Assembly (NCBI RefSeq): GCF_032062105.1
Contig: NW_026925642.1
Coordinates: 186,001 to 250,000, forward strand
Length of the DNA stretch: 64,000 nucleotides
DNA from: Saccostrea cucullata
Taxonomy: Eukaryota
Direction: 5' to 3'
The position numbers were made by a program, and so were the translations under genes. Of this stretch, positions 12,478 through 41,819 are shown one piece after another. The first letter of the stretch is position 1. Each line of letters begins with the position of its first letter. The notes beneath the pieces were generated by a model. The model was not told where the DNA came from. It made no database searches and was given only the letters and a program-made list of their open reading frames with translations.

Positions 12478-15400
12478 TCAAGAAAAGGACTGAAGATTAT
12501 TTGCTCTGAGTTTCCTTTCATTCATCTTCATACATTCGTTCATCGTGCTTGCCATAAAGTCTCTCTCATTGGCAAAGGCAATGGCTTCGTCCCTTTTCCT
12601 TGACCTGTACCCCCTGAGTACCGCTGTGTGGGGGTTGTCCTTAGCCTCGGGGTGGTGTGATTTGTATTTAAACTCCATTCTTGTGATGACTGGCAGACAG
12701 AGGCCATTGGGGAGTGGTACAAGGTCGTTACCTGTCCGCCTGTCTACGTACTCCGGGTGTTTTTTGCGTACAGCTACGACGTCAGACAATGACTGCTCCC
12801 TGGCTTGTTCCAGATCTGTCAGGACTCGGGCAGGGTAGGTCTCTCCTGTAGAAATCAATTAAATAGAAAGAGCTTATTATATAGAATAAAAAATCTGATG
12901 GGTTCAGTCCATATCCAGTTTAAAAATTTTGGGACAAGCTTCAAAAGCATCAAATTTTAAGCCTTACAGAATAAATTCCCGTATCATATTGCTTTGTAGG
13001 AAATCGGGAATGAATAATATCCAAAAAATTTCAAGTACATTTGCCATATTCCATGAGTCAATTTAATTTCTTCAATAAGGATCCAATTTTACCCTTATGA
13101 GCTAAAATATCTGATTTTTTACACAAATTTTTAAGGATACCCTAAATAAGATCCATGTATGGAACTCACCTAATTTTACACCACATCTTCTGAGAATGGA
13201 GGGGGGACATTTCCAGGGCTGGTGTATGAAGTCATTAGGGAGAGAGGCGATCTCTGGGCACCAGCGTCTAACATAAGCCCCATCTGGGTCACAGGTCAAG
13301 GCCGCATCCACGGGATGCATGACAAAATTCCACTGGTCCAGACCACTCATACCACCATTCTGCCACATCATGGCGTTAATAGCCACATCAGCATCCAGCA
13401 GAGTGTCCTAAATAATTCATAATGTCAATAAATCTCAGTGCTTTCTTCTACAAAAATCCTTAAATAAGTAATCGTTTGTTGAAATCCTTCAATTTACTTC
13501 AGTCTTTTAGAATTACTCTCTTTATAAAGCTTACCATGAATTAGTACTGACAATACAGTGTCAAAAAGACCCTTTCTTTAAATAAAAGATTATATTGATT
13601 TCTGTATTCATTGTACACACTAATTTTGCATTAAATAAAATATTTGAAGTATTTTACACCAAGTTTAAATGAAAGACAATGACGAGTAATTTTATTTGTT
13701 GTTATAGTTCCAATTGTACATGCAGTTACAGTTATTTTGTAATCCAGTGAGAAATTTTATCATAAGACAGTGTGAAAACATTAGGTTTAATCTTCAAATA
13801 AGTGATATAGCATTTTTATTGTTATTTTACTCCTATAATACAGTAATGAATAGTCAAAAAACTGTGCTATGATATTGTCAGGGGAAAAAAATATACTGGT
13901 ATACTCTTCTTTTAAAGACATTAAATCAAATTCAAAATATGTTTTTAAAAATCAATAAAATTAACCATCAATGCAAGATATAAATAAATCATGTTTATAC
14001 CTGGAACCACCTGTATCCCTCCACCCAGTGAATACGGAGGTAGGATATGAGGAAGGAAGCCACCACGTGCCTGAGGTAGTTATTGATCCACCCCTCTAAC
14101 CACAGTTGTCTCATAGCAGCATCCACCAGAGGGAACCCTGTCCTTCCCCTCTGCCAAGCCTTCAAGTGATCCCTGTTGCTGCTCCAGGCCTGATCCTTTG
14201 ATGAAAAAAATACCATAAAAAATATCATATATATTTGGATGTGAGAGGGAGTGAGTGACCTAGAATTGATTTGGGTTTTTTCCCCAAATTCTTATTTAAA
14301 AAATTTTGTTTATTTGGATTGATACTATTTTCCTATTCAACTCTACAAAGTCAAAAAAGAACTCCATGAAATAGTCGTACCCTGTAATGGACCCTGGTAG
14401 GTTGTGACGGGAGATCTGGCCACAGAGACAACAGCCAGTAGGAGAGGTCTCTCCAGGCCAGCTTTCTGAGGAACTTGGGGGATTTCATGTGTCTGGCCTC
14501 CTCCAGTATAGCGCGGGGACTGATCTGGCCGAAGTGAAGATAGGGAGAGATTCTGCAGGTGTTCAGATGATCTGCCCGACACGACTCCTTCTCATATTTC
14601 CTCACACCTACAAAAACAGGAACATGGTTAAGGAAACAAATCTAGCCAATTTATTGAATTTAAATTAATACAGTTAATATATACCCCTAGAGGCATAGAA
14701 GATGAATGTTTACCTTCAGACAAAAAGAGCTCTAAAGCATTCCAAGCTCCATTCTCTCCAAAATCCCATTTTTCTACAATAGGTGCTGCCCAGTTTATCT
14801 AAAGATATGAGATGCATGTTAACGAATCTAAATATTCAAATATATTAATGACTTCCATCATATGTAGAATACTGTACAATTTTTTAATTGCTTACAATCA
14901 TAGTAGTGTTCCCCTACATAAAATTTAATAAATTGTCCCAAATTATCTGTCAGATTTAGACTATATTAGATGAATTAGCCAAAAATCAGATTTCAGTCCT
15001 TTTTTCCCCTTGAAAATTGCTTCTTTAAAGTCCCCTTCTTAGCATGGATCTTAGTCCCTGTAAAATTTGATTTTGGGGATTAATATTTGTAAAGACATGA
15101 AAGATGGTCTATAAAATTTAACAGAAATATAGCTTCTGCAAAAAAATCTTTTGATTTCCAGAAATATGAGAAATCTGATTCTGCATGATAATGGACTTAA
15201 CATATACATTTGTAATATACAAATTGACAACAGTGCAAATAAAATTATTTAAAATGTGTTTCAAATGAATCACACTACTATTAAGGTAAAAAATTACAAT
15301 AGTTCCATCTTTTCTCCTTGGCATCTTTGCCAGTCCTAAGTCAGATAGAGACATGCTGATTTGATACTGTTCAGGTCTGGGCAGTGTCCCGGGGGCCTCC

Positions 15401-16449
15401 AGAGGATGTCCTATGGGCTGAGTAGAGGACTGTCTACAACACTCCATGAAGTGAGTCACTGAGCCAATACCTCTCATCCCAAGGGACTCGGTGGACACTG
15501 AGTCTGGCTCATGTAACAAGTAGGAAGGAAAACGTTTACAGTTGATTCCCCTTTTCTGAAGCTGTTCACAAATTTTGTCATCTCTCTGCTTGAGAAATGG
15601 CTCATAAATATCATTAATGATAAATGTTTTAGCACCAGTTTCATCCATCAATTTCATAATTTCTTTCTGATATGAGTCTGTTTTTCTGAATATTATTTCA
15701 TTTTCATATTTGTCGGCAACTGATTTGTTTAATTCCTTCAAAGCGTGGTGTAGCCATAATTTTGTTGCACCCCCAGCAGCCACAACATTGTCTGGATCCT
15801 CTTCAGACTCTGACCAAAGGAAAGCTAATATTACAGGTGAGTTCATGCTGGCTGCTGCACATAGTGCTGGATTGTCATACAGGCGAAGGTCTCTCCTGAG
15901 CCAGTATAGTACAGGTCTTTGCAGCTGCTTATCCGAACTCTTACTACTTGCCCTGCCTTGCTTTTTCTTCTTTTTGGAAGATTGATTTGATGCTGTGTTG
16001 TTGGAAGCTTTAGATATTTCTGTAATTTGGACTTGAGCTTTCTTTACTTCACTTTTTGAATTAGATACACTAGATCTATTTGATTTGACATGCAGGATAC
16101 TGGCATATGAAGATTCTGGGTTTTCTTTCTGTTCTATAGAAAGCGCAGATGCAAGCTCTACATCTAATTCATACCCAAAGTCACTCGTCAAATATCCATT
16201 CTCAACACTACAACCTATTGGATCCGTGAACGTGTCAGAAGGAGGCTTTTCAAAGTAGTTTACATAAATGTTGCAAAGTTGATGGTACTTTTCTGTGTTT
16301 GTGAGCTGTAAAGCGTCAATGTACTCCAAAAAATGTTGTCTGGTAGAATCGTATCCATCAAGTGAAACTATTAAGCAAAAGCATTCTTCAGCAGAAGTTA
16401 TCCCTGATATAAAATTCTGTAATATTTCCTTTACGCGTGTCGTCTCCAT
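12478..16449 (-). CDS. Plant-like cryptochrome / photolyase family protein (PCRY-like), 6 exons, 754 aa
   Basis: Exons 16449-15298, 14798-14714, 14607-14381, 14195-14001, 13407-13170, 12845-12478; all GT-AG with consistent phases. Motifs: WLRRDLRLYDNPAL, GGATKLWLHHAL (plant CRY/class III CPD type), ISPYLHFGQISPR, WQRGRTGFPLVDAAMRQLW, DTLLDADVAINAMMWQ, DPDGAYVRRWCPE. Confidence 0.92.
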
Positions 16450-17103
16450 TGTCAAAAAGAAAGTTTACATAACCTGGATCGGAATCTCTCTAGACTTTAC
16501 AAAGGGCATCTGATCCCGATGCAATAAGCTCTATCTGACAGTCCAAAAAACGATAATTTTTAGGGAAAACATTTAATGTCAAGCAGAACAAAATTTAACG
16601 ATAATTCATGGGCCAACAGAAAATTCGGACTTCAATCATTGATCCGTTTATGTATATATATATTTTTTTTTATTTAAGAATCGGGTTCGATATTCTAATA
16701 ATTGTAGTGTCGTTGATTGTCGGAAAATTCCGTGGAAAATAATTATTTTAAAAGATGAATAAAATTAGATTTCACAAAGATTGATTGAAGCTAAAACAAA
16801 ATTATATATGTGATAAATATTACTTTTGGTTTAAAAGTTTTTACTCCATCCAATCAAAAAACGCCAACTTTAGCTTAGTGACGTCATATTGAAGTTCGAC
16901 ATTTCTTATCAAAACACAGTCTAATTGAGCAAGTAAGGAAGGTGATTTTCATTTGTTTTAATTGTATGTCATTGGTAAATACTGATATCTTTAATTATCA
17001 AAAGAATTATTGAAATAAAAGACACCCGCAAAGCTAGTTTTACTGCAGCTTAATTCAGTTGTAATTGTTTACTTCCACTTTTGTTTTCTATAGGTCTAAT
17101 AGG
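16450..17103. promoter_or_regulatory. Bidirectional promoter between cryptochrome and HERPUD
   Basis: Start codons 654 bp apart. D-box TTATGTAA (-) at 16465-16472, CCAAT at 16850, CRE TGACGTCA at 16879-16886. Probable HERPUD 5'UTR intron 16933-17093. Confidence 0.6.
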
Positions 17104-20100: not shown

Positions 20101-22919
20101 CAGTCAAGGCATATTGGTGATTTCATGAAAAGTTTCAATTTCGCTGGGTATAACCACACATTTGGGGTGTCGTTTTGCATATTCAATTTTTTACCCAGTG
20201 ATTATCGGTTCTAATTGAGTTTGTTTAGGACAGAATCAGATCATTTTGGATTATAAGTAAATTTTGCAGTAAAATGAACACTATTCACAATGAGGATGGA
20301 TATTTAATCATTTTTGTATTCTTACAGAATGAAGAAAAAGTTCACCATACAGTCCATTTAGTTTGTTCTCCATCCATGGAAAATGCTAATGAATCTCCTA
20401 AACCTCATGTAAGATTGACTGTAATATCTCTATAAATTATTTTCCTAAGTAATTTCAAGTAAATTAATTTTGGCAACTTTCCGATGATTTTATTTGCTTT
20501 CATATAAAGGAAAAAACTGTAAGCAGTACCATTTCTTCCTCCTACACATCAAGAAGCACACATAGCTCTGAAGGACTACGCCATCGAATCAATCATAGTC
20601 AGACTAGCCAGCCAACCAACATAACCAGGTATACAATCTGTAGTATTCCTTAACCTTGTAATTGTTTTCTTTTTATGCACCTGACTTAAGATGGGATGTA
20701 TTATGTTTTGGCATTCATGTCCGTCCATCTGGTCTGATTGTTAGGTTTTCTTTCTCGTTTCTGGCTCATTAATACTATTAGACCTAGAGTAAGTAGAGTT
20801 ATCAACTTTTGTCAGCTGATACTATTATCAGCTGTACCATTTTTTTTTTTACCTTGACATTCTCATCGCATAGGCGATAGCTATGCTTATAAACTTGTTT
20901 TCTATGTTATTAGCAGTTCCAACACAACACCCCCCACACAATCACCTCCCCCAATGATGCCTAATGCCATGGGCCCAGAGCAGTACATGATGATGCCTAA
21001 TGCCCCTGGTATGGCTGTCACCCAAGAACAGTACATGATGATGATGCACAATTACTACTACCAAATGACTACACAGTACATGCAATAGTAAGTAAATTGT
21101 ACATTACTAAGTTTAAAACCGAAAACATGACACAATCATTTCATATTATTAATTTAAAAGGGAGGTAATTGTCTCATTATTGACTTGTGCACATAAAGTA
21201 TAACATATAACTGTAAAAAGAGTATCTTAACAGATTTAGTGAATATCATCATATATTTAACTCAACCAAGAAAATTTGAGACTATCTGTTTGAAGTTTGC
21301 TAACAGATATTTTTTGCATCCAGCATAAAAATAAATATGCAGAGACTGAATAAACATACCATATTACCAGTACAGTGGAGCCTCATTTATCCGGATGCTT
21401 TGGTCCTAGTCAATTTGTCTGGATATATATGAAGTGTCCAGATATCTGAATTACCAGTTAAAAAGGAATAAATAACAAAAAAAAAATTCTGTTTAGAAGA
21501 AAAGTCGTCCAGATACTGAAGCATCCGGATATCTGGCGTCTGGATATCTGAGGGTCCACTGTATATATTTGCACAACCAGTTAACATTATGAGAATGTGA
21601 TAGTAATAATCTATTTAGACTATCATCTGTGATCTTAAAGAATGTTCTTCTTCATCCAAATTTTATAACTTGTATTTTACCCTATGGAATATGGTGGCAA
21701 AGCAGAAGTTGTCCATTTCTCTTAAAATCTGGCTAAAAATTAAAAGTAAAAATAACAGCAAAAACATGTTATGGGGTATTGGGAGAAGATTGACAGCATT
21801 ATATTACAAATTAATTTCTTACAACTCTTTTAAAGATATTTCTTTTTAAAATTATTACCAAAATAGAGCAAGATGATTGCTAAATTTTTTCAAGTTTTTT
21901 TTTCCAAACTCAGCTTCTGCAAATTCCTAACATTAAACAAATTACTTGCAGCTATCAGACAGGAACGTTTCAACCTGTAACCCCCCAAGTTGTTACGGAT
22001 CAGGAGAATGAGGCCCCCAGACAAAACAATCAGGAGGGCCCCGCTCCCAGACCAGACAACGCTAATCAAGTGATGAACGCACAAGGAGGCCTGGAAGAGG
22101 ATGACGATGAGGAGTTTTTCGGTCCCAGAGACTGGCTAGATTACGTTTACACCTTCAGTCGATTCCTCGTCCTGATCAGCATTGTTTATTTCTACTCAAA
22201 CTTCACCAGATTTCTGGCTGTTGCTGCTTTTTTCTTTTTGGTTTATTTGTAAGTTTGTTTTCTTATTCAAGTACAATCAAACCTTGTTATTTTGAACTCA
22301 AGGGGACCAGAAATTTTTTTTTCTTAAATCCAATCATTCCAGAGGTTGAGGGTTAACTGCTTAAAGAAGAAATTCTTAGGACTATTAATTACTGTGACAT
22401 ATCGATGGTATTCAAGATATCAGTGTTCTAGATATCAAATTTAACTGTATTATGGTATATAATGGAATATTTTTTAACATTTATGAGGGAGGGTTTGATT
22501 TTTTGTTGTTGATTTTCTATTTGTTATCTTCTTCAGATATCAGACAGGATGGTTTGGTGTACGTCGTAGAAATCGGGAACAAGAGATTGAAATTGTAGTG
22601 GAACCACCACAACAACCTGAAAATGTTCCCAGGGATCCAGGGGCCGAGGAAACTCCTGCTGAGGAGGTAGGCATTATTTATATAAAAACTTTAAATATTA
22701 ATGATTCAAGAGAGACTATTCAGATATGTTGTCCTTTGTTATGATTATGAAATGTGGATCTTTTATTTTTAGGAGAGTAATACACCACAAACAGAAAGTA
22801 CTCCCACAGATACCCCTGAACCCCCTCCCCCCGGGGCTCTGACAGTTGCTTGGAGTTTTGTGTCAACCTTTTTCAGCTCATTAATACCAGAACCTCCTGC
22901 TCCAGTTAATGCTAATTAA
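17104..22919 (+). CDS. HERPUD: Homocysteine-inducible ER protein with ubiquitin-like domain (HERPUD1/2 ortholog), 8 coding exons, about 387 aa
   Basis: Exons 17104-17241, 19672-19749, 20328-20408, 20510-20628, 20914-21087, 21952-22248, 22537-22666, 22773-22919. UBL VTLVIRAPNQ..WTVKKLK..QRLIYSGKLL; EGLRHR; MNAQGG..RDWLD..YFYS; C-terminus AWSFVSTFFSSLIPE..NAN*. Confidence 0.93.
17781..19298. mobile_element. hAT-like non-autonomous element with 6-bp TSD, in HERPUD intron
   Basis: ATTGCA|CAGGGCT...AGCCCTG|ATTGCA; contains a HINE-like fragment near 18205. Confidence 0.65.
21373..21561. mobile_element. Tc1/pogo-like MITE
   Basis: TA|CAGTGGA.CCTCA..TATCC...GGATATCTGAGGGTCCACTG|TA. Confidence 0.7.
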
Positions 22920-24385: not shown

Positions 24386-25803
24386 TTATGATGTTTGGTT
24401 TTCCTCGGCTGTTGATGTTTGTTCTGTGGTGTCCTCTGCCTCTTTCGATTTCCCTTCATCCACAGGAGAAAACTTCTTAAACCAAGTGTCGAACGGAATG
24501 TTGGATAAAGGCACACGCTCAGGCATTTTTGAGAGCATTTTAACGATAAGAATTCGGCAGTCTTCGGAAACTTCCGGTTTGGCGGGAAAAACAACTTTCT
24601 GTAGGACCTGTTTCAGAAGTTTCTTATGGTTGGAATCATCAAATGGGAGTCTCCCGTACAACATTGTAAATAAAACAACCCCCATACTCCACACATCAGC
24701 GAAAAAGGGGTCGTATGGCGTTCCCTTCAAAATCTCTGGTGGTGCATATGCATAGCTTCCGCAGTATGTTTCACTTGGTTTGAAATCGCCATTTTTAGAT
24801 TTCTGTATTTTTTTGGCAAATCCAAAGTCTGTGACTTTAAGATGAAAATGCTTATCCAATAAAACATTCTCGCATTTGAGATCGCGATGGACTACACCTT
24901 TTGAGTGCATGTAAGACATCCCATCGTGAAACTGCTGGAACCAAATTCCACACTGAGATTCGGGAATCGTTTTCTTGCTTCTGATATAATCTAAGAGATC
25001 AATGTGACCCATCTCCATAATTAGAAAAAAGCGAGTGGTTGTTTCAATGACTTGGTAGAATGAAATGAGACAAGGGTGTTTTAGAATTTTGATCACTTCA
25101 ATTTCCCGTGGTAAAAATTTTAGAAGGAAGTCGTTCGGAGCCTTTCTTTTAGAAATTATTTTGATAGCAACTTTGTGTTTTCTGTTGACATCGTATGCAG
25201 ACCTAACACAAGCATAAGATCCCTGACCGAGAGTCTTCCCCACTATAAAACCTTGGCTTTCTAAAACCTGTAATATAGGTATATAAAAAAATAGATATAA
25301 CTTATACGCAATGCTTAATTTCCAATAAATTTACAGTATATTAACGTGATTAAAGACACATTCTACCGAATGAGAACATTTTTGCATGATCTGACATGTT
25401 TGTGCAATTTAAACAGATTTCACATAAAACTTATATTCTAAACCATGCGGGAGTTACATTTTTTTGGAAAAATTTAAATTCGGGTTTGGGCAGAAACAGT
25501 GCTTATCCCTTTCACTAAGGCAAACACTGTGACATAACTACAACCTTTTTCAAAGGTTAATGAAAGGAAAGGACACATATAAATAGCAAGAATTGCATGT
25601 TTTTCAATCATTAAATCTGTGAATTACATTCCTTTCCTCCAACCCGTCATTGTATATAGATGTAAATGTTTGTAAATATTATATATAATTTTCACCTGAA
25701 ATCTTTTTGTAGCCTTGCTTTTGGTTGTAGTTGTGGAGGCCGCATCCTCATTTCCATCGACTCCTACGGATTCATTGTTTTCTTTATCGTCTTCATTTAC
25801 CAT
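24386..25803 (-). CDS. TSSK: Testis-specific serine/threonine kinase (TSSK family, TSSK4-like), 2 exons, 329 aa
   Basis: Exons 25803-25696 and 25267-24386. Motifs LGQGSYA, VAIK, KFLPREI, HRDLKCEN, DFGFAK, SETYCGSYAYAPPE, GRLPFDDSN are typical of TSSKs. Confidence 0.9.
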
Positions 25804-30658: not shown

Positions 30659-32548
30659 TTAATTTTTGCAAACATTCATAAGCTTTCTTAAGAAATCCAA
30701 GACAAATGTTGGATTATGAAGAGTTCCGAAATCAGCCAAACTTAGAACATGGTTAGAATCTGTCGCAATATCAAGCGAATCCTGTCTGTTGAAATTTTTC
30801 GAAATACCTATAACAAAAATTTCAACACTCTGATTTTTAAGTTTTTCAGCCTCCAGAGTGGCGTGAATAGAATTCATAGGACGCCCATCGGTTAAGAGGA
30901 CTAGCACGTTCGGATGCCCGGGTCGATCACCATTAGTGACGTTAAACAGATTTTCCCTTACGAATTGAAGGCCGCTTGCTGTCATGGTAAGGCCTGGATG
31001 GTTATACGATATATTCTGAACAGCTTTTAACAAGGAGAGTTGATGAGGGTAGGTATTGAGAGTGAACTCCAACTGCGGTAAGGTCGCGTATGTCACCACG
31101 CCGACCTGATCGGAGTGTGGACCGATGTTCAGGAATTGAATGGTCTTAAAGATGTAGTCCTTCAACATTTCAAAATTGTCACTCCCAACACTTCCGGACT
31201 GGTCCACAAGAAACACCAAGTCCAAACCACAATCTGTCATTAGAAAAGGAAGGAAAACAAAAACGGAATAAAATAGATAGTTTGTAAATTTTGAATTTAC
31301 TGGGTAGCAGTAAATTAATTTAACTTTTACAACATCACTGATTTTTGTATTTACTGCACCCCGGTAAACATGACATTTCTAAGGCAACATAGAACTGTCC
31401 ACGCAGGAGATTTACCAGAAAGATTCTTTAAAACTGAAGCATAAGATCAAGAAAAAACTTGTATGCATATTTTCGACAGTCAATCTTTGATCAATAATGT
31501 TGAACTGACAATTTTTCAGATAAGTTTAAACTTTAGCATTTCCGCAAGAAAAGTGCAGACATACCTGCAGTATTAAGACAAGGTGTGGAACCATTTGAAA
31601 ACGTCTGCAAATTGGCAATATTTGTAGACATTGCTTTAAAACAAAATATGCGGCAATAATTATACATGTATACGACATTAAACAAAAGCATTATTCAGTA
31701 TCTACAGTGTATATGAATGTGAAAAATTCTTGTAAAGGTTATTTTTTACCCAAGGCCATTTGTTGACACTGGTCTAAATCACTGTTCCGAATGTTTAGCT
31801 CCTTTCTTGTGTTATTCAACTGTGTCTCTAGAAGCTTATTTCTCTGGCGAGAGACGTGGAGTGCTGCTTCTCTCTGCTCATTGCTTTTGGTGCACGTGGT
31901 CAAATTGGCCTCAAGATTTCCAATCAGCGAAGTCGATCTGTTCAGCTGATCTTGTAGAAGATTTATTTTGTCAATAGAGGTAATGTTTTGGTGATCACAA
32001 TCCTTCTGGATGCGTGAAATATTAGCTTGTAGTCCTGCCATTAGTGCCGCGTGGGTTTGGTTTGCAACTGAGTCGTTCAGTTGTTTCTTTAATAAGTCTA
32101 TTTCAGCATTGGATGTATTTAGAGTTTCTTCAAGTTGATTTCTTTGTAGGGCACAACTGGTTAAATTGTTTGTCAGTTGTATCACAAGAGAACTCGACTC
32201 GTTCACCTTAGTTTGCAATTCATGAATCTTATCATTCAAGACACCTTTCTCTTTACTGTTCGTGGTTTCTAGCGTTGTTATATTAGTCTTCAAGGCCTGT
32301 ACCAGGTCTTTTTGGTGCCGCAGCTCCGAGGAGAGCAGCGAGTTGTGTACCGAGAGTTCTATGTTCTTGTCGCTGAGTTCGTGGAGCTGTTCGTGTAGGT
32401 ACTTCACCTCGGTCATCAGGAACACGGGGTCGGGCGTGGTCGGCACTGTTGTCGGATCAAAGAGGAACCTCTTGATATTGTGTTGACTGCAAATAACTCC
32501 ATATTGAGTTAAAACAATTAGAAGAAAAACTCCAGGAATGAAATCCAT
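30659..32548 (-). CDS. Secreted coiled-coil + single von Willebrand A domain protein, 3 exons, 480 aa
   Basis: Exons 32548-31750, 31633-31565, 31233-30659. Signal peptide MDFIPGVFLLIVLTQYGVICS, heptad-rich region, vWA DLVFLVDQSGS..LTMT..VLLTDG with intact MIDAS; collagen VI/XII/matrilin-like. Confidence 0.85.
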
Positions 32549-33635
32549 TGACGATGATGAACACAGATTATATCATATCTGTCAGAAGTCAAGGCTCGGC
32601 GACACACCAAACAGATAAGACGTTCTGCAGAATTAACGGAATCTCATTTGATGCAGTTCTATTTAAAAAAGTAACATTCTGATAATTTATTACTAATAAT
32701 TTTTATATTTTACACATTGGGCGACAGAGGATTGACAATAAAAGCCCTTTACCTATATCAAGGACTGTTTATATGTTTATAGTAAACATAACGCTTTTTT
32801 TCAAGCACATAGCACCAATTTTGAAAATGATAACCAATAATGAATGAGTAAATAAGAGGGGGAGAAGGACTCTTCCGTTTAATTATAAAAATTTTTCTGT
32901 AAAAAGAATTTCCCTCAAAACAGAGGAGTTTGATCACCTGCCTCCCCATCCTCCTTTTTAATTTAACTAAACATATTAACATGCTTAGATATAGGCTATA
33001 TAGCAATGATATACAGTGTACTATACACGATTCAAAAAAAAAAATTACATGGCGACTGCAGTTTTACAGGTCATCATGGCTTAGGAAAAATACGCAGAAT
33101 GATTTAAGAACTTTTCACACGCACATGAATATCTTCAATAATTTTTAATGTTAACAATAAGTTCGCCAGAATTAAAATTTTCACTTTCAGCGAGTAACTT
33201 ACGAATAAATGAATAAATATTTTTACCGTGAAAGAAATTACTAGTATACAAGTACTGGCTGACAATTTGTTATCGGTATCATTATATGACTTTTATCTAA
33301 AATCAACAGTTGCTTCATCGCTCTATGTACCAGTACAGGTGTACTTTGTATGGATCGCCGTATTGACACCTGTTGCAACGAAACAAGGAAAATACCAATA
33401 TATTAATGATTTTATAAAAAGAACCGATTAGTTCTAAGGAAATAATTACTGTATAACATGATATCAATGAACCTAGATTAACTTAATGTTAAAAAGATGT
33501 GTGCAGTTAATTAAGAAAATGGTTAAATGATATAGAAAAAAATACTGGAGTAACTGGAACAGGCTAACTGTAAGTGTTAACAATTGATGTTGATAACATT
33601 TGGCGCTCCGTAGATAAATTGTTACAAAATGAAGA

Positions 33636-35150
33636 ATGGCCATTGACAAAGTGACATCGTATTTTAAATCATTTGACGTGAACTTTCCTGTATTTTGTTT
33701 GACAATTCTGTTTGGACTAGGGTCGTGGCTCACCATAAATGGAGTCTGGGTAGAGCTGCCGACCATTGTGAACTTCGTCCCCGAGCAATGGAAACTGTCA
33801 TCATACCTGTCAATTATAGGTCAGATAGCCAACATCGGTCCTATAGCAGTCCTCATCCTTAACAAAGCAAGACCCAAATGGCTAAACGAGACCTTTGTCA
33901 CCTACGTCATCATCATTGTGGGAACTGCGTCATGTATCTTGGCGGCTTTTCTGTGGCAGAAAACATCAACAGTCGGAGGACAGGAACACAGTGTAGCTTT
34001 GTTTGTCTTCGTTTTTCTTCTTGGTCTGTGTGACTGCACATCGACAGTTATATTTCTACCATTCATGGCCTTGTTGAAGCCAGACTACATGACCGGGTTA
34101 TACATTGGGGAAGGTTTGAGTGCGCTCGTTCCAGCAATGATAGCACTCGGTCAGGGCGTTGGAAAGACCGAGTGTAGGAATGTATCAGCTGTCAATATGA
34201 CTACAAATATCACAATTTTTCATACAGAACAAGTATCCTCTTCTCCCAATTTTCCGGTACGAGATTTTTTTTGGGCGTTAGCAACCATGATGGCAATCAG
34301 TGGCATATCATTTTCTTTACTCCGATATGCCCCTTTCTGCAAGAGCGAGCGAATAAGTGTTACAGACAATTCGGCAAAATCAATCTCGACGTCTTGCCAA
34401 CTGCAGGAAAAGAAAGATACGGCAAACGGTCATGCAGACACTACCGTGCTTATTCAGACACATGATAAAAGAATGTCGAAGACAACCAAGGCTGTATGGT
34501 TGACCATTATAGCCTGGGTCAGTTTCCTAGCAAACGGATTTCTACCTTCCATAAGTACGTACTCCTCTCTACCTTACGGGACCGACGCTTACCATCTGGC
34601 AGCCATACTAGAAAATATTGCTAATCCTTTGGCGTCTGCTTTGGCTTTCTTTTTTCCCGCCAAATCCTTTCGCGTACTTTTTCCTACTGTTTTAGCTGGT
34701 ACAGGTTTCTCTGTCTATCTCTTAGTTTTGGCGGGAACGAGTCCCAGTCCACCACTTGTGGGTTCACTTGCTGGGTCATTCATTATGGTAAGTAGCAACA
34801 TATTTATATATAGTGTGCAGTTGTGTAATGGTGATATATAAACACCAATCCTAACAATTTATGCAATATGTAAATGCTACTAAATTCATAAAATTTTCTT
34901 GCCAACATGTGGTACTAACAGGTAAATGTATGACATTCGTTCAACTGTTTTACAGGTGGTGATTTATATAGGGAAGACTTGCCTGTTTATTTATACCAAG
35001 GTGTGTGTTGCCGTTCTGTTCCGAATGGATGGAAAACAATCGTTGTTTTTATTGGGAGGCGTCACACAGCTGGGGGCGTGTCTAGGCTCTGTGTTAGCCT
35101 ACATTCTAGTCAATGTGATAGTGGTCTTTCAAGGTTCTCCAGCATGTTAA
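33636..35150 (+). CDS. SLC52A: Riboflavin transporter (SLC52 family), 2 coding exons, 448 aa
   Basis: Exons 33636-34787 and 34956-35150. Motifs FGLGSWLTINGVWVELP..PEQWKLSSYL..ANIGP, DCTSTVIFLPFM, GEGLSALVP, LPSISTYSSLPYG, GGVTQLGA. Confidence 0.93.
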
Positions 35151-35529
35151 TGAACATTATTATGCTGGCATCTACATGAACAAGTATATACACGTATTGG
35201 ATAACCAATTTCAACTTTATCATGGGCAATATTTACATGCTACCAAGTTTAAGATATGGAAATAAGAGAATTAAGTAAAATGTTATTTTAATGTTTTTAA
35301 TTTCATGTACTACCTACATTAAGACATGCAATTAAAACACTGTCATTCACTCTATAAAATAAATATATTCTTGAAAATAATGAAAACGTCACATTCTTAT
35401 CTAGTAAATATCTACATTATGAATGAACATTGTATACACTGAAAGACTATGTAGCATCTATCACAATAAAGAAGGGACAATCCTGTTTTTACACCTGCCA
35501 TGTTTTTGTCACAAATTCTACCTCCACTG

Positions 35530-38500
35530 CTATGAAGTTTCCTTTAAACATTTCTCAGGATGAGGATATGGTACACCGAACTGAATGCACACTTTTCTGA
35601 GTGTCCTTTCGTACTCCTTGTTAAGTTTTGTTGCCTGCTTCAGGCCAAACTTAAGGTCCTCTATTTCTTCAAAGAATCCCTGAATAAATGAAAAGCACCA
35701 AACCTTATTTCAGTATCAATCAAGTATACATTAGGATAAAGATTTACAAGCTTACAAATACTTACAAAATCTAATCCCTTCAATTCCGTCCTGAGTTTCT
35801 CATTTTCTTTTTTCATTCTTTCACATTCCTTGGCTACTTTTTCATATTTTGTTTTTATTCCTAACAATAAAGATCATTATTTATCAGTTTATGTTTTAAA
35901 AATTAAAATGAAGGCTAACAAGATCCTAAATAGAGAATGGTTAATCAATTCACAAAGTGAACTGAGACTAAGTTTGGTAAATGCAATGTTTTCATGTACA
36001 GGTATGTACCTGTATCATCATTTACAGAATACATGTATTGTCCAAGGATAGTAAACTTTAACTTAGTGTGGATTTGACCTTTCAAACCAGTACTGGTAGG
36101 CTTCATGTATTCTTAAAAGGGAACTTTTACTCCAAAACGAACACAAATTAAAGTTATGGCATGCTAGTTCAATAATCACCAAGAGAGTATGCATTGGAAT
36201 AGACAGGTTAGTAGATCACACAATGTAAAAAACACGGAAAATGGTGAAATAAGAAAGAAAATGAAGGTCATTATTCACAGTGTAATGGATTACACAGGTG
36301 TTATATTAGACAGTTGTCACTGTCTGGTAAAAATCTGCTAAAAACAAAGAAATTACGAATGCCTTACCTGATTTCAACTCTTCCATTGGTGCTGGCAGTT
36401 CTGTAGACTTTTTCTTTGGGTGTTGATTCATTAACTGTCGTTCTAAGGACATTCTTGTGTTTTTCTCTTCTTTTAACAGTCGCTCCAGTTCTGATATTCT
36501 AATCTAAAACAAAATACTGAGACTTTTGAGGAGATAGCTGATGATCTGAGTCGTAAATACTGAGACTTTTGAGGAGATAGCTGATGATCTGAGTCGTAAA
36601 TACTGAGACTTTTGAGGATATAGCTGATGATCTGAGTCGTAAATACTGAGACTTTTGAGGAGATAGCTGATGATCTGAGTCGTAAACAAAATACTGAGAC
36701 TTTTGAGGAGATAGCTGATGATCTGAGTCGTGAACAAAATACTGAGACTTCTGAGGAGATAGCTGATGATCTGAGTCTTAAATACTGAGACTTTTGAGGA
36801 GATAGCTGATGATCTGAGTCTTAAATACTGAGACTTTTGAGGAGATAGCTGATGATCTGAGTCTTAAATACTGAGACTTTTGAGGAGATAGCTGATGATC
36901 TGAGTCCTAAATACTGAGACTTTTGAGGAGATAGCTGATGATCTGAGTCCTAAATACTGAGACTTTTGAGGAGATAGCTGACGATCTGAGTCGTAAATAC
37001 TGAGACTTTTGAGGAGATAGCTGATGATCTGAGTCCTAAATACTGAGACTTTTGAGGAGATAGCTGATGATCTGAGTCCTAAATACTGAGACTTTTGAGG
37101 AGATAGCTGATGATCTGAGTCGTAAACAAAATACTGAGACTTTTGAGGAGATAGCTTATGATCTGAGCCGTAAATTAAAATGTTTAATCATACAGCAACT
37201 TCACAACAAAACAAGAAATAATGTACTATACTCTCCTCTTATATTGAAAGCTGATGTGAAGTATGAAATATAGTATAGATTATGACCATGTTTTATATAA
37301 ACATCCACAATTTATGTACCAAATAGGGACATTTTACTTCATATACCATTGAGAGAAAAATTTGTAGGCCAAAATTTATAATTTTGTTTACATTTTAAAA
37401 ATAAAATATCAAAGTTAAACTGCACATTACTCATTTAAAATGAACTACTCAGATGAAATTCCACTTCAGACCTTGTTGTAAAATGTGTTCTAAACATTTT
37501 TATTAAAAAAAAAAATCACAAAGCAATCTAAAATGACATTCAAATGAAAGTCACATGCAGGAAGCAACCCTCACTCTTTAAAATCAGCACAAAAAATCAA
37601 CAAGATGCCTGTATTCATCCTAGACACTTGATATTACTTATTTCATAAAAAATTGACCCAAATAGGTATGGGTTATTATTTTTATCTAAGAAAAATAAGT
37701 AATGTTAAGTGCCTGTGGTGTTCACATTTGAGAAGTTATGTTTCACATCAGCAGAATGACATAATTACTCTCCATTATTAATCATTCATTTTCTAAATAG
37801 TTAAGGAATGGCTTTCCAAATTTAAACCGATCATACAATCACATCTGTGATGGTTTCTTAACCCCGATCTTACATTTAAATCTGTGATGGTTTCTACATG
37901 TAGCATATTCATCTTCACCTCTTTTTCATATCTTCTCATCATTTGATTATGTAGTGATAGGAGCCTTAAAATTACAAAGAAATGCAAAAATAAAAATAAA
38001 TTTATACGATATTACAGAGTTGTGGAAAAGTGCCGGTCATGCCGGCAAAACCGACAAAAAATTCGCATGACCGGTAAAAATGCTATCAGTGTCGGTCCAC
38101 ATGACCGGCCCCCTCTTTCTGTTAAAGCTTTTTGTTTTTCTATTTCTCATGTGCATTTCCCTTCTTAATATTGTCGTACCTTATATGCGATTAAGTAATA
38201 CCTTTTCTTTTAACGAGATCCAGGCTGTAAATGAAAGCGAAACTGGCATGGTTCTCGTGACCTATTAAATTTAAATGCAACTGGGGCAGAATTAGGTAGA
38301 AAACGTATCAAAGAAAAAAATAAAGTTTAGAGGAGCTAAATATGAAAAATTTCAACAGAAAGAATGCAAGCACAGGTGGGGAAAGCAGTAAATCTAGTAC
38401 TTGCACTGTGTGTTTTTTTACTGATCGTTTATTGCTTGTATCGATGCAAAGAATTTTTGCAATTTCTAGACCCATTTTCTAGGTTAATATTATAATTCCA

Positions 38501-40226
38501 AAATGCATAAATGTTTAAAAAAAATTACAATCACTATGCTTAATTAACAATGTGACCTTCCAAAAAGCGATGGTATCTAGTATTGTTATAAATGCAAAAT
38601 TAAAAGAAAACGGAAGAGGACTTGGAAATGGAGATTTGAATTTTGTATCATTATTATCATGATTTATTAAAAAGATTGTGTTATAAAGTGAATATGTATT
38701 AAGTTTTTTTTTTCCATTTTGCGACGTACTATTTCGGACCGACAAAAATCACTTCGGACCGGCTTATTTTGTTTTCTTGTCGGTCCGAATGACCGGCTAT
38801 CTGAAAAAGTTTTCCACAACTCTGTATTATTGTATGCAACAATAATTGAATCCAAGATTGTGTCAAATAGTGTATTGTCAATTTTGTATTAAATTCTGAA
38901 GACAATACTTGTGATTAAAATGTAGGATAGACCAATCATTTTCATTGGACAAAGGTTTCTGACGTAAAGTGTCAGTACATTTTTCTGTTAATTGCATGTG
39001 TGTCATTAAAATTTTTGAGAATCATTGAATTTAGTAGTATATAGACATCTAGTGGTTTGTGACCGTTTGTGGAAATGGAAGATAAAAAGCCTGTGACATG
39101 CAATGTTTTTAGTCCTGCTTGATGAAATTTTTCTAACATTATGTATGATATATACATATACATGCAATATGTATGAGACGAAGATAAATTCACTCGACAA
39201 GTTGCACAATCTAATCATACTTGTTTGTCTGTTCCACATCTGCTTTAAATGATGGATCTTCCTTTTTCTTCACCGCCACTGCTGGCTGGAACACTCTGTT
39301 TCCTTCTGTTTGCGTCGAAGAACTACAAAAAATTTAGGCATCAATAGTCATGAAGATAAATGTTAATGAATCAAAAATAATTTTCTCAGGAAAAAAATGA
39401 TTCTATTCGGGAATTTGAAAAGATGAGGTCATGGTAACATTTGATAATGGCTTAAAAGGCCTGTAGTTTGCAGAGAGCAAAAAAGAAACAAAAGAATAAT
39501 TACAACTACTCTACAATGTAATAAATGTATTTCATTTAATAATGCACTAGGTGTGTAGTCTCGATCAACCCATCTTTGCTAGTGAAGATGTATTCAACCA
39601 GATGCTCAGCTGTCTCCGTAAATTCCAACATCATGTGATGTCACAATATAGACTGTGTCTTGTGCAGTTTGAAGTTTGAAAAGGCAGATCAAAATTACAA
39701 GTGTAAGCTGTGTATAGATTTTTGATTGTAAAAATGGCACTCACCCTTACAGTCAGAGTCACACTGTAAAACATATCATTCATTACTTAAATAAAACCAC
39801 AATCTCATTGCATTTTTTAAAATCTTACTCTCTCGTTGTGACGTAATTCTTTAACAGTTCTTCCCTCTGCAACTTCTGCTTTAGATTTGACAGCTCCGAC
39901 TGAATATCGTCCCTCTGAATTTTCAGTTTCCAACATTTCTTTTTCAGTTTTTCATTTTCTGCTGTCAACTATAACATAAAATACACATCTATATATAGTC
40001 GTTTCTTATAAATCTTGTTAAACATACATGTCTTTCTCTTTTTTAGATGCCAAAATTCTGTAACAAAAAACATTTAAACCTAAAAATATAATGATATTCA
40101 AAGGAAATTCGGGTTAACTACATGTATCCTATGCATTTTGAATTCTCTTCACATCAGTGCCTAAAACGATATTTATCTCTGGTTGAACAATACCTGAATG
40201 CAAGTGTGAATATCTGGAAAAGACAT
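35530..40226 (-). CDS. Small coiled-coil protein with CEP290-like C-terminal motif, about 248 aa
   Basis: Exons 40226-40194, 39968-39829, 39322-39221, 37964-37874, 36503-36368, (optional 36111-36079), 35860-35766, 35679-35530; GT-AG, phases consistent. C-terminus LRTELKGLDFGFFEEIEDLKFGL..LRKVCIQFGV. Confidence 0.75.
36512..37171. repeat. Minisatellite, 15 copies of a 43-bp unit (some 48 bp)
   Basis: Unit aaatactgagacttttgaggagatagctgatgatctgagtcgt, near-identical copies. Confidence 0.95.
38015..38824. mobile_element. hAT-like MITE with 5-bp TSD
   Basis: TATTA|CAGAGTTGTGGAAAA...TTTTCCACAACTCTG|TATTA; subterminal (g)accgg repeats. Confidence 0.75.
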
Positions 40227-41819
40227 TTTCTTGACATCTAATAAGTTTTCCGAAACATATCTATTTTATGATTTTTTTTTAAATTTATCATCTCCGAACA
40301 ACATCGCAACAAATAAACTTCCGGTATGTATAATTTGAAAATCTTCCCTGTAGCCTATCAAATCCCGGAATCCGGAAAAGGCTTTCCAACATTTTTACAC
40401 TAAACACAGAGAATCTAAGACTTAGTTACGTGTTTATTACACACTTGCTATATATCATATATATATGACTAAGTAAATAAAAAAGAAGTTAATCAGTTTC
40501 AATATTAACACACACAGTTCCATGGCAGAGCAGCTAGCCTGGGTTTCCTAAGTGAAACAAGTATGGCATCCATGTAAATATATATATATCCTTTTGCAAG
40601 CCAAAAGTGTAAGATCTATTTATTCTCTCAACTCTCAAGGAGCAACGCAAACCTAACACCATTGGCTTGTATAGATAAGGATATTTATAAATTTTGTTTA
40701 CATGTTAAAACTTGTAAAATACAGTCTAACTTCACCATCTCCAACTTGTGGGGAGAAAGAAAAAAATTTGATGTATCCAAATAGTTATATTTGCAAATAT
40801 TTTCTCCGATATAACATTTTAAGCAATGCATATCTATCACCGTAGATAAACTTTTTTGACAATATTTCAGTCATAATTGTTTGACGAAATTTCTCAGAGA
40901 TGTCATAAAGGGTCGACGCCCAGCTTTAAATAGATTAAACTTGTTTTGCTGAGATTAGAAAAATTCAAAATTTCGTAAGTTAGTGATAAAAATCAGTAAG
41001 TAATGTATAATAAATTGGTCACAAATGTAGGATACTTAATCAAATTTAACATAAAGCCCTTATTGCTAGCCTTATTCAAGAGGCAAGATATCAACGGTTA
41101 TAAATACTTAAAGAATACTCAGTACCAGGTAAATGGTTGGGCCTTCTAATTCACTCCAACATATCCAATGTATTTAAGATATTATTTTGATACCAAAGTG
41201 CAACTGCATCACTTTCATTCATAATACTGGACAGCAACACAAAAAGAAAAAAAGATAATAAATAATTTAATGGAATTGGATCAGATTCAATGGGTTTAAC
41301 AACATGTAATAACTGACACTATAAGATTGTTAGGTGACTGAGGTTTCACAATTTCATATATTTTAATATGGATATGTCAAGATATCATAAAAGCAAAGGA
41401 ATATTTCTCCTAGACTCAAAAGCTATAAAACATTTAAAGAACATATTAAATGCCTATAGGATGAATCCTAAGACTTGAAATCCTGCCCACTTTGAAGGCC
41501 TGTTGGACATTTCATCTCCCATTATAAAGCCTGGATGACATTTCCTTCTTCCTTAAACCCTGCTGGACATTTTCTCTGACTTAAGTCACAAGATTATTTT
41601 CTCTGACCACCAAAACTCTAAGACACTTCCTTCCTCTGTGTCAGTTGGACATTTTCTTTAACCTCAAAGCCAGCAGGGCATTTCCTCAGATGTCTTACAC
41701 TCAGTTCAGGTTTTTCATGTAGTGCAGTATTACACACTGCTGAATTATAAGCATAAAATATACATTCTAAGCACACAAGTCACAAGAAGTCATTCAGAAC
41801 TAGTAACAAATCTTGCACC

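Follow-up and report, generated by a model that had tools for sequence, protein, structure and literature searches.

A stand-alone oyster gene combining a CEP290-type terminal domain with an LC8-type motif belongs to an ancient and apparently undescribed family

The transition-zone protein CEP290, also named NPHP6, measures about 2000–2500 amino acids (aa) and carries a characteristic domain at its very end. A locus of the oyster Saccostrea cucullata raises the question of why a coiled-coil protein of 248 aa, one tenth of that length, terminates in the same manner. The locus lies in a stretch of 64,000 nucleotides (RefSeq assembly GCF_032062105.1, contig NW_026925642.1, positions 186,001 to 250,000 of the forward strand), which is called the window here and supplies the numbering used below. 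A reading of this DNA from its letters alone—the sequence-only reading—had proposed a 'mini-CEP290' or 'short paralog', made from 7–8 exons and about 250 aa long, and suggested that it may act at the ciliary transition zone or in the sperm flagellum, either as an adaptor or by competing for the partners of the CEP290 C-terminus. The analysis reported here leads to a different emphasis: the gene represents a real and ancient family which reuses the terminal domain of CEP290 and is apparently undescribed.

Six-frame translation and exon assembly place the gene on the minus strand at 40226-35530, where seven exons, rather than eight, provide 747 nt encoding 248 aa and a stop codon. All introns are of the GT-AG type, the frame is open for 248 codons, and the predicted product is identical to a S. 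cucullata RefSeq model labelled 'CEP290-like'. Models of the family thus already stand in RefSeq, right in structure and bearing automatic names only. In the genomic DNA an in-frame stop lies 42 nt upstream of the ATG, and the start position is common to most relatives from rotifers to birds. RDSSTQTE, which contains the TQT motif, is encoded across the exon 2-3 junction, and the C-terminus quoted by the sequence-only reading across exons 6-7. Transcript evidence was obtained from three raw-read runs, all of low depth, and two contig sets; these are mostly 95-99% like the window and so derive from a close relative of the window's oyster or from another strain. Reads traverse junctions 1-2 (n=8), 2-3 (n=12), 3-4 (n=8), 5-6 (n=11), and 6-7 (n=15). 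Junction 4-5 appears only as loose ends matching the partner exon on both sides (11 reads and a contig on one, 5 reads and a contig on the other) because neither alignment region spanned that intron. The RNA of the relative supports all six predicted junctions, and the gene is expressed and spliced.

Is this gene the tail of something larger? Upstream of it, and encoded by the same strand, PDCD5 (PF01984) has its stop at ~41822, at a distance of 1.6 kb from the ATG. Its reads finish in poly(A)-like loose ends at ~41252, about 1 kb upstream of the gene, and no joint linking PDCD5 to the 248-aa gene was found in the relative's reads. No reads fall on 40278-41132 either, a gap which is weaker evidence than the poly(A)-like tails, since non-coding cover can be lost by divergence. 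CEP290 itself resides elsewhere. Its domain PF16574 (CEP209_CC5) scores above cut-off in this genome only on contig C10432 (E 6e-17), where P0287, a 2470-aa CEP290 with PF16574, aligns in 15 collinear pieces (G000:C10432:187081-218266; 947 residues, aa 308-2454); residues 1-307 of P0287 were undetected in the 100 kb of this contig examined. Compared with the whole window, P0287 matches through aa 2420-2464 only. The 248-aa gene therefore stands alone, separate from a full-length CEP290 on another contig of the same genome. That it was unlikely to be the tail of a full CEP290 had been anticipated by the sequence-only reading; both such a tail and PDCD5 read-through are ruled out by the missing joint, the tails at ~41252, and the CEP290 on C10432.

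Two further features of the CEP290 loci were observed. A second copy of the CEP290 3′ end, including the last exons, extends to the contig end at G000:C2516:162963-170552 (L003, L020, L021); its aligned pieces are 82-94% like C10432, so that it is either an allelic haplotig or a partial duplicate. The last CEP290 intron on C10432 (G000:C10432:215700-217800, L015) contains a tandem array with a unit of ~50 bp, which repeats the end of the penultimate exon and may offer alternative donors.

The automatic names, CEP290 or CEP290-like, together with the second 3′ end on C2516, might suggest that the 248-aa gene is a fragment, a mis-split tail, or a recent dead duplicate of CEP290. This explanation retains next to no likelihood: it is refuted by the gene's own start codon, its seven spliced exons and intact frame, the presence of PDCD5 directly upstream and of a full CEP290 elsewhere, a differing last intron position, and relatives of the same length across animals.

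How much of CEP290 is shared was addressed by direct comparison. BLASTP aligns residues 182-240 with aa 2406-2464 of P0287 (28/59 identical, 47%, E 3e-12); this is the sole significant stretch, the next best having an E value of 0.17, and the reported C-terminal signature is a real match. A profile of the family's C-domain scores 50-57 bits on two long CEP290s. Applied to the same two proteins, a profile built on residues 1-135 of the family reaches 4.1 and 4.8 bits, against shuffle maxima of 7.6 and 6.6; it attains at least 14 bits on 170/174 family-type sequences of at least 180 aa, a set which includes training rows and near relatives. Since residues 182-240 alone are significant, the N-terminal profile stays within the shuffle range, and the position of the last intron is shifted by 9 codons downstream relative to the oyster CEP290, the gene represents a domain-sharing family, the simplest origin of which would be a partial duplication or graft in the distant past. 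Sequence comparison demonstrates homology to CEP290 for no more than the last ~55-60 residues. The sequence-only reading was right about a separate gene; its terms 'mini-CEP290' and 'short paralog' overstate the kinship for this reason. A faint hint in the other direction comes from the CEP290-type fragment P0271, which the N-terminal profile matches in register with 13.1 bits (shuffle maximum 4.6, reversed 5.6), as if the whole protein might descend from the last ~245 residues of CEP290. In a tree of the 58-column C-domain, sequences of the family and those of CEP290 group by label (3 and 4 changes versus ~17 when shuffled), and the branch dividing them has a support of 56, so that the tree does not establish a single origin or the direction of the duplication. 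Beyond the tip the two proteins differ: PF16574 has no match on the oyster protein (P0001), and the N-terminal membrane-binding and microtubule-binding regions of CEP290 (PMC7793253) have no counterpart in the family. The TQT linker is conserved in the family, whereas one long CEP290 lacks TQT and the other has a single match elsewhere. A third architecture may reuse the domain, as a 2551-aa protein (P0260) without a PF16574 match carries three copies of it.

Profile searches recovered 44 and then, at E<=1e-5, 176 proteins of similar length (120 of the 176 among the matches listed). A search without word index through 1.84 billion representatives yielded 667 matches at E<=0.001, 160 of them at E<=1e-10 (150 of the 667 among the matches listed). 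Lengths are mostly 200-350 aa, with 187-355 aa in 64 named members. Among invertebrates, these include oysters, mussels, scallops, snails, a nemertean, Capitella, Lingula, and bdelloid rotifers, in which the gene is present more than once, as well as Trichoplax, the anemone Actinostola, Ptychodera, a crinoid, sea urchins, a sea cucumber, and amphioxus. Vertebrate members come from sharks and rays, a crocodile, geckos, and many birds (exemplified by chicken LOC107052690). Ten representatives were looked up and five could be named: a lungfish, a ray, a bichir (with a reedfish in the cluster), and the choanoflagellates Salpingoeca infusionum and Didymoeca costata. The latter two reach 31 bits (shuffle maximum 5.8) and 10 bits (5.5), respectively, with the profile of residues 1-135, and the N-terminal and middle coils are kept from Salpingoeca and Trichoplax to birds. 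The family thus extends from two choanoflagellates to birds and is no local curiosity; judged by its sequences, it is at least as old as animals plus choanoflagellates. In a quick full-length tree of 81 rows, with 34/78 branches open, the 20 vertebrate rows form one branch (support 99), where those without a name group with reptiles and birds. The matches listed include no named mammal, teleost, amphibian, arthropod, or nematode, and the gene has likely been lost in these groups. Bdelloid rotifers are asexual and possess motile cilia. Because they keep the gene, a role confined to sperm is unlikely, which weakens the sperm-flagellum function envisaged by the sequence-only reading.

Automatic names often confuse members with CEP290, e.g., 'centrosomal protein of 290 kDa isoform X2' for a protein of 248 aa. 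Scans of oyster, hemichordate, ostrich, and annelid members brought no Pfam family above its cut-off; a Pfam scan of the exons and the whole oyster protein returned sub-threshold generic coiled-coil matches only, and PF27605, which two relatives carry as a precomputed annotation, was not among them. Sequence searches of the PDB found generic coiled coils only and no solved relative. The ESM Atlas, queried with the whole protein and with residues 170-244, returned generic coiled-coil clusters (SPATA24, MIPOL1, ninein fragments) with 105-128/256 features, below the typical true-family level, and no CEP290 cluster; these results were not used. No description of the family was found in open full text, subscription journals and most supplements lying outside the search, possibly because named mammals, teleosts, and others are not among the members listed. 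The 'CEP290-like' Nematostella gene NVE26007, mentioned as a conserved miRNA target (PMC7935066), could not be assigned to either the family or CEP290. In its gene model, the member P0204 is joined to an Arf GTPase; the vertebrate-like fragment P0235, which is not in the tree, is likewise joined to a metallophosphoesterase (PF00149), probably a neighbouring MPPE1-type gene and hence a synteny lead on the mammalian loss. P0293 and P0268 measure ~335 aa and have two QT-type motifs each, and the terminal signature of P0293 lies between the family and CEP290 types.

The anatomy of the protein was modelled by AlphaFold2 from 25 sequences (mean pLDDT 79.7, pTM 0.28). Helices span residues 6-56, 81-148, and 166-233; the stretches 60-79 (pLDDT < 50) and 153-164 are of low confidence, and no helix occurs at 57-80. 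Three helical segments connected through two loose linkers are predicted, with heptad periodicity in the coils, whose a/d positions are hydrophobic in 59-89% versus 0-28% elsewhere (73% versus 17% in coiled coil 1). Conservation amounts to 0.74 in residues 190-238, 0.60 in the TQT stretch 52-66, 0.57 each in blocks 1-20 and 86-135, and ~0.3 in the linkers. The charged residues E193, E204, D207, and K209 are invariant in 25 aligned members and mostly common to CEP290. An N-terminal H-x-C motif is found in 50/64 named members, many misses being models with differing starts; at a guess, the motifs of two dimerised chains might provide a metal site or a disulfide.

LC8 motifs are described as residing in disordered regions, with position -4 favouring a residue capable of hydrogen bonding and position +2 favouring D, E, or P (PMC6607443). 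The oyster motif D-S-S-T-Q-T-E, which lies in a predicted disordered region, fits all specified positions of a published consensus (PMC3078936) except K at -3, and shows the favoured flanks of the TQT anchor (D/S at -4, D/E at +2). Q62 and T63 are invariant in the 25 aligned members. Among the 64 named members—hand-picked and related to each other, hence not independent counts—57 carry a TQT-type motif, including Trichoplax and Salpingoeca (shuffles 3.2%), and 30 match the strict consensus of PMC3078936 minus the -3 lysine (shuffles 0.19%). When two copies of oyster LC8, encoded by an intronless gene of the same genome (L022), were modelled with two copies of residues 40-80, the complex scored 0.78, compared with 0.33 for the best of three controls. 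LC8 touches residues 54-63 and 65 in the model; at least 64% of the contacts recur between runs, and the partner pLDDT does not fall below 57. The mark applied to the model was reached by 51/78 solved and 2/108 mismatched microbial pairs, a calibration without peptides or disordered chains; since LC8-TQT complexes have already been solved, passing it may reflect likeness rather than binding. Taken together, motif, disorder, conservation, and the complex model make it quite likely that LC8 binds the family's motif, and the LC8-type motif pointed out by the sequence-only reading is a conserved feature. The ciliary-centrosomal system is reported to be enriched for LC8 clients (10.1101/2023.09.15.557927), and LC8 is described as promoting oligomers of coiled-coil clients such as LCA5/lebercilin and OFD1 (PMC9481538; 10.1101/2023.09.15.557927), which like the family have a linear motif of the TQT type in a disordered part of a coiled-coil protein. 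LCA5 has two motifs as opposed to one in the oyster protein, and the CEP290-type tip is particular to the family. No homology to LCA5/OFD1-type LC8 clients was found, no direct comparison having been made.

These features suggest an LC8-clamped coiled-coil dimer which docks at the ciliary base by its CEP290-type tip, a mechanism that we consider evenly poised between right and wrong. A parallel dimer would form a hinged rod of up to ~28 nm. One LC8 dimer, according to the model, may bind the TQT motifs of both chains in the first linker and hold them in register. The terminal domain, the most conserved part of the protein, would by homology bind the site or partner of the CEP290 tip, or this tip itself, and thereby bring the rod to the basal body or transition zone. 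The coils of the N-terminus and the middle, which are specific to the family, might recruit a partner that CEP290 does not. Docking at the ciliary base is proposed because the only named homologue of the tip is a transition-zone protein. In line with this, a C-terminal fragment of fly Cep290 (aa 1385-1978) reaches the transition zone by itself, through Cep162, and a mammalian CEP290 C-terminal fragment is cited as self-associating and binding an N-terminal fragment (PMC10914257). The enrichment of LC8 clients at cilia and centrosomes likewise favours docking there.

The last-mentioned interactions also suit a regulator rather than a building block: the protein, which has the CEP290 tip and no other CEP290 region, could cap or compete with the tip of CEP290 as a natural dominant-negative and tune transition-zone assembly. 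The retention of N-terminal and middle coils and of TQT from Salpingoeca and Trichoplax to birds exceeds the needs of a decoy, however, and the second half of the terminal domain has a family signature of its own. Such a competitor is distinctly unlikely.

Other observations weigh against docking at the ciliary base. The fly fragment measures ~590 aa, and since fragments of this kind are ten times as long as the shared domain, its targeting is not mapped to the ~55 residues in common (PMC10914257, PMC7793253). The shared domain is itself unlike CEP290 in its second half (19/43 residues identical to the last exon of the CEP290 of the same genome). No localisation, tissue, proteome, mutant, or expression data were found for any member. 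The dimer was formed in modelling only within the LC8 complex. Many TQT peptides fail to bind LC8 in isolation (PMC6607443), the oyster motif is without the -3 lysine, and 7/64 members, among them Didymoeca, miss the motif altogether. The absence of named mammals and teleosts among the matches listed implies that the protein is not a universal ciliary part, as both groups have motile cilia. Finally, the 1071 bp around the start (40180-41250) contain no full RFX X-box. In the same interval, forkhead-like matches occur in two places (4 versus 1.5 expected), and X-box half-sites number 2 versus 1.05 expected (consensus from 10.1101/2022.11.11.515474).

Some of these points bear on where else the protein might act. 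As an axoneme or rootlet part of motile cilia, it would be an LC8 client like the radial-spoke stalk proteins, and its domain would serve self-association or microtubule contact away from CEP290. Every named carrier of the family possesses motile cilia or flagella; arthropods and nematodes are not named among the matches listed. LC8 does bind the radial spoke protein RSP3 (PMC3392930). Mammals and teleosts, both of which have motile axonemes, are nevertheless not named among the matches listed either; an axonemal part would also sit uneasily with the lack of an X-box and with solved structures that offer generic coiled coils only and no relative. We regard this assignment as unlikely, if still worth keeping in mind. 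A non-ciliary role as a generic LC8-dimerised coiled-coil adaptor at the centrosome, at satellites, or on dynein cargo, with the domain as an oligomerisation module only, would agree with the promoter lacking the ciliary X-box motif, with the three similar domains of P0260, which has no CEP290 Pfam match, and with the more than 100 LC8 partners of many kinds (PMC6607443). It accounts poorly for the only named homologous domain sitting in a transition-zone protein and for the invariant charged residues, which, being mostly found in CEP290 as well, are more in keeping with a common binding surface than with a plain coil; we judge such an adaptor improbable, marginally more so than the competitor. 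Returning to the ciliary base, the broader proposal that the family is an unrecognised ciliary-base protein, older than animals, which partners or rivals CEP290 via the terminal domain, links it to LC8, and was separately lost in mammals, teleosts, arthropods, and nematodes is put forward tentatively, with rather less than an even chance of being correct.

The coordinates of the gene and of the other features of the window are compiled in Table 1. The relative's reads diverge from the window past the 3′ untranslated region listed there.

Table 1. The 248-aa gene, repeats in its introns, and neighbouring genes (window positions; exon numbering follows the direction of transcription; UTR, untranslated region).
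Feature	Positions	Strand	Content
Exon 1	40226-40194	-	aa 1-11; start codon and N-terminal H-x-C; junction reads
Exon 2	39968-39829	-	aa 12-57; coiled coil 1, helix 6-56 in model; junction reads
Exon 3	39322-39221	-	aa 58-92; disordered linker, LC8-type motif D-S-S-T-Q-T-E (Q62); junction reads
Exon 4	37964-37874	-	aa 93-122; first half of coiled coil 2, family-specific conserved block
Exon 5	36503-36368	-	aa 123-167; end of coiled coil 2 and variable linker
Exon 6	35860-35766	-	aa 168-199; coiled coil 3, CEP290-type domain begins
Exon 7	35679-35530	-	aa 200-248 and stop; core of CEP290-type terminal domain (FFEEIEDLK)
3′ UTR, at least this far	35529-35420	-	read cover and loose ends at 35420; converges on SLC52 riboflavin transporter gene
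43-bp tandem array, 15 copies	36512-37175		acceptor end of intron 4; built from sequence just upstream of the exon 5 acceptor
Intron 3 repeat	38015-38825		two inverted parts; covered by reads from other loci
SLC52 riboflavin transporter gene (PF06237)	33633-35150	+	tail to tail with the 248-aa gene, stops 380 bp apart
Photolyase/cryptochrome-family gene (PF00875, PF03441)	12481-16464	-	~180 extra open-frame residues before the photolyase domain
Exons resembling, as we take it, HERPUD	20858-22741	+	no Pfam match
Single-exon Ser/Thr kinase gene (PF00069)	24389-25330	-	presumably akin to testis-specific TSSK
vWA-domain gene	30662-32572	-	secreted product
GCIP/CCNDBP1 exon	53191-53562	+	
Leucine-rich-repeat gene	62284-64000	+	runs off the window

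Among human ciliopathy genes, CEP290 is the one most often mutated (PMC7793253), and frameshifts in its last exon, exon 54, occur in patients with LCA and Joubert syndrome, namely p.Leu2448Thrfs*8 and homozygous p.Thr2457Alafs*27 (PMC3048164, PMC11172861). No account of what the last ~60 residues of CEP290 bind was found in the literature searched. In the human protein, p.Leu2448Thrfs*8 presumably truncates close to where the shared domain ends, and p.Thr2457Alafs*27 presumably affects only the tail beyond it. The patient frameshifts show that the extreme end of CEP290 matters; they do not isolate the domain itself. The family does so by presenting the CEP290 tip in a small protein conserved since before animals, which identifies the tip as a functional module in its own right and makes the search for its partner tractable. 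It also exposes annotation errors, in that members of 250 aa are filed as CEP290. Sharks, lungfish, reptiles, birds, and many invertebrates keep the gene, and none was seen in the usual models among the matches listed, which amounts to a blind spot. If the proposal is true, the tip of CEP290 would be an independent module for docking, accessible to study in a protein of 250 residues, and the losses would have hit mammals, teleosts, arthropods, and nematodes, that is, nearly all models of cilia genetics.

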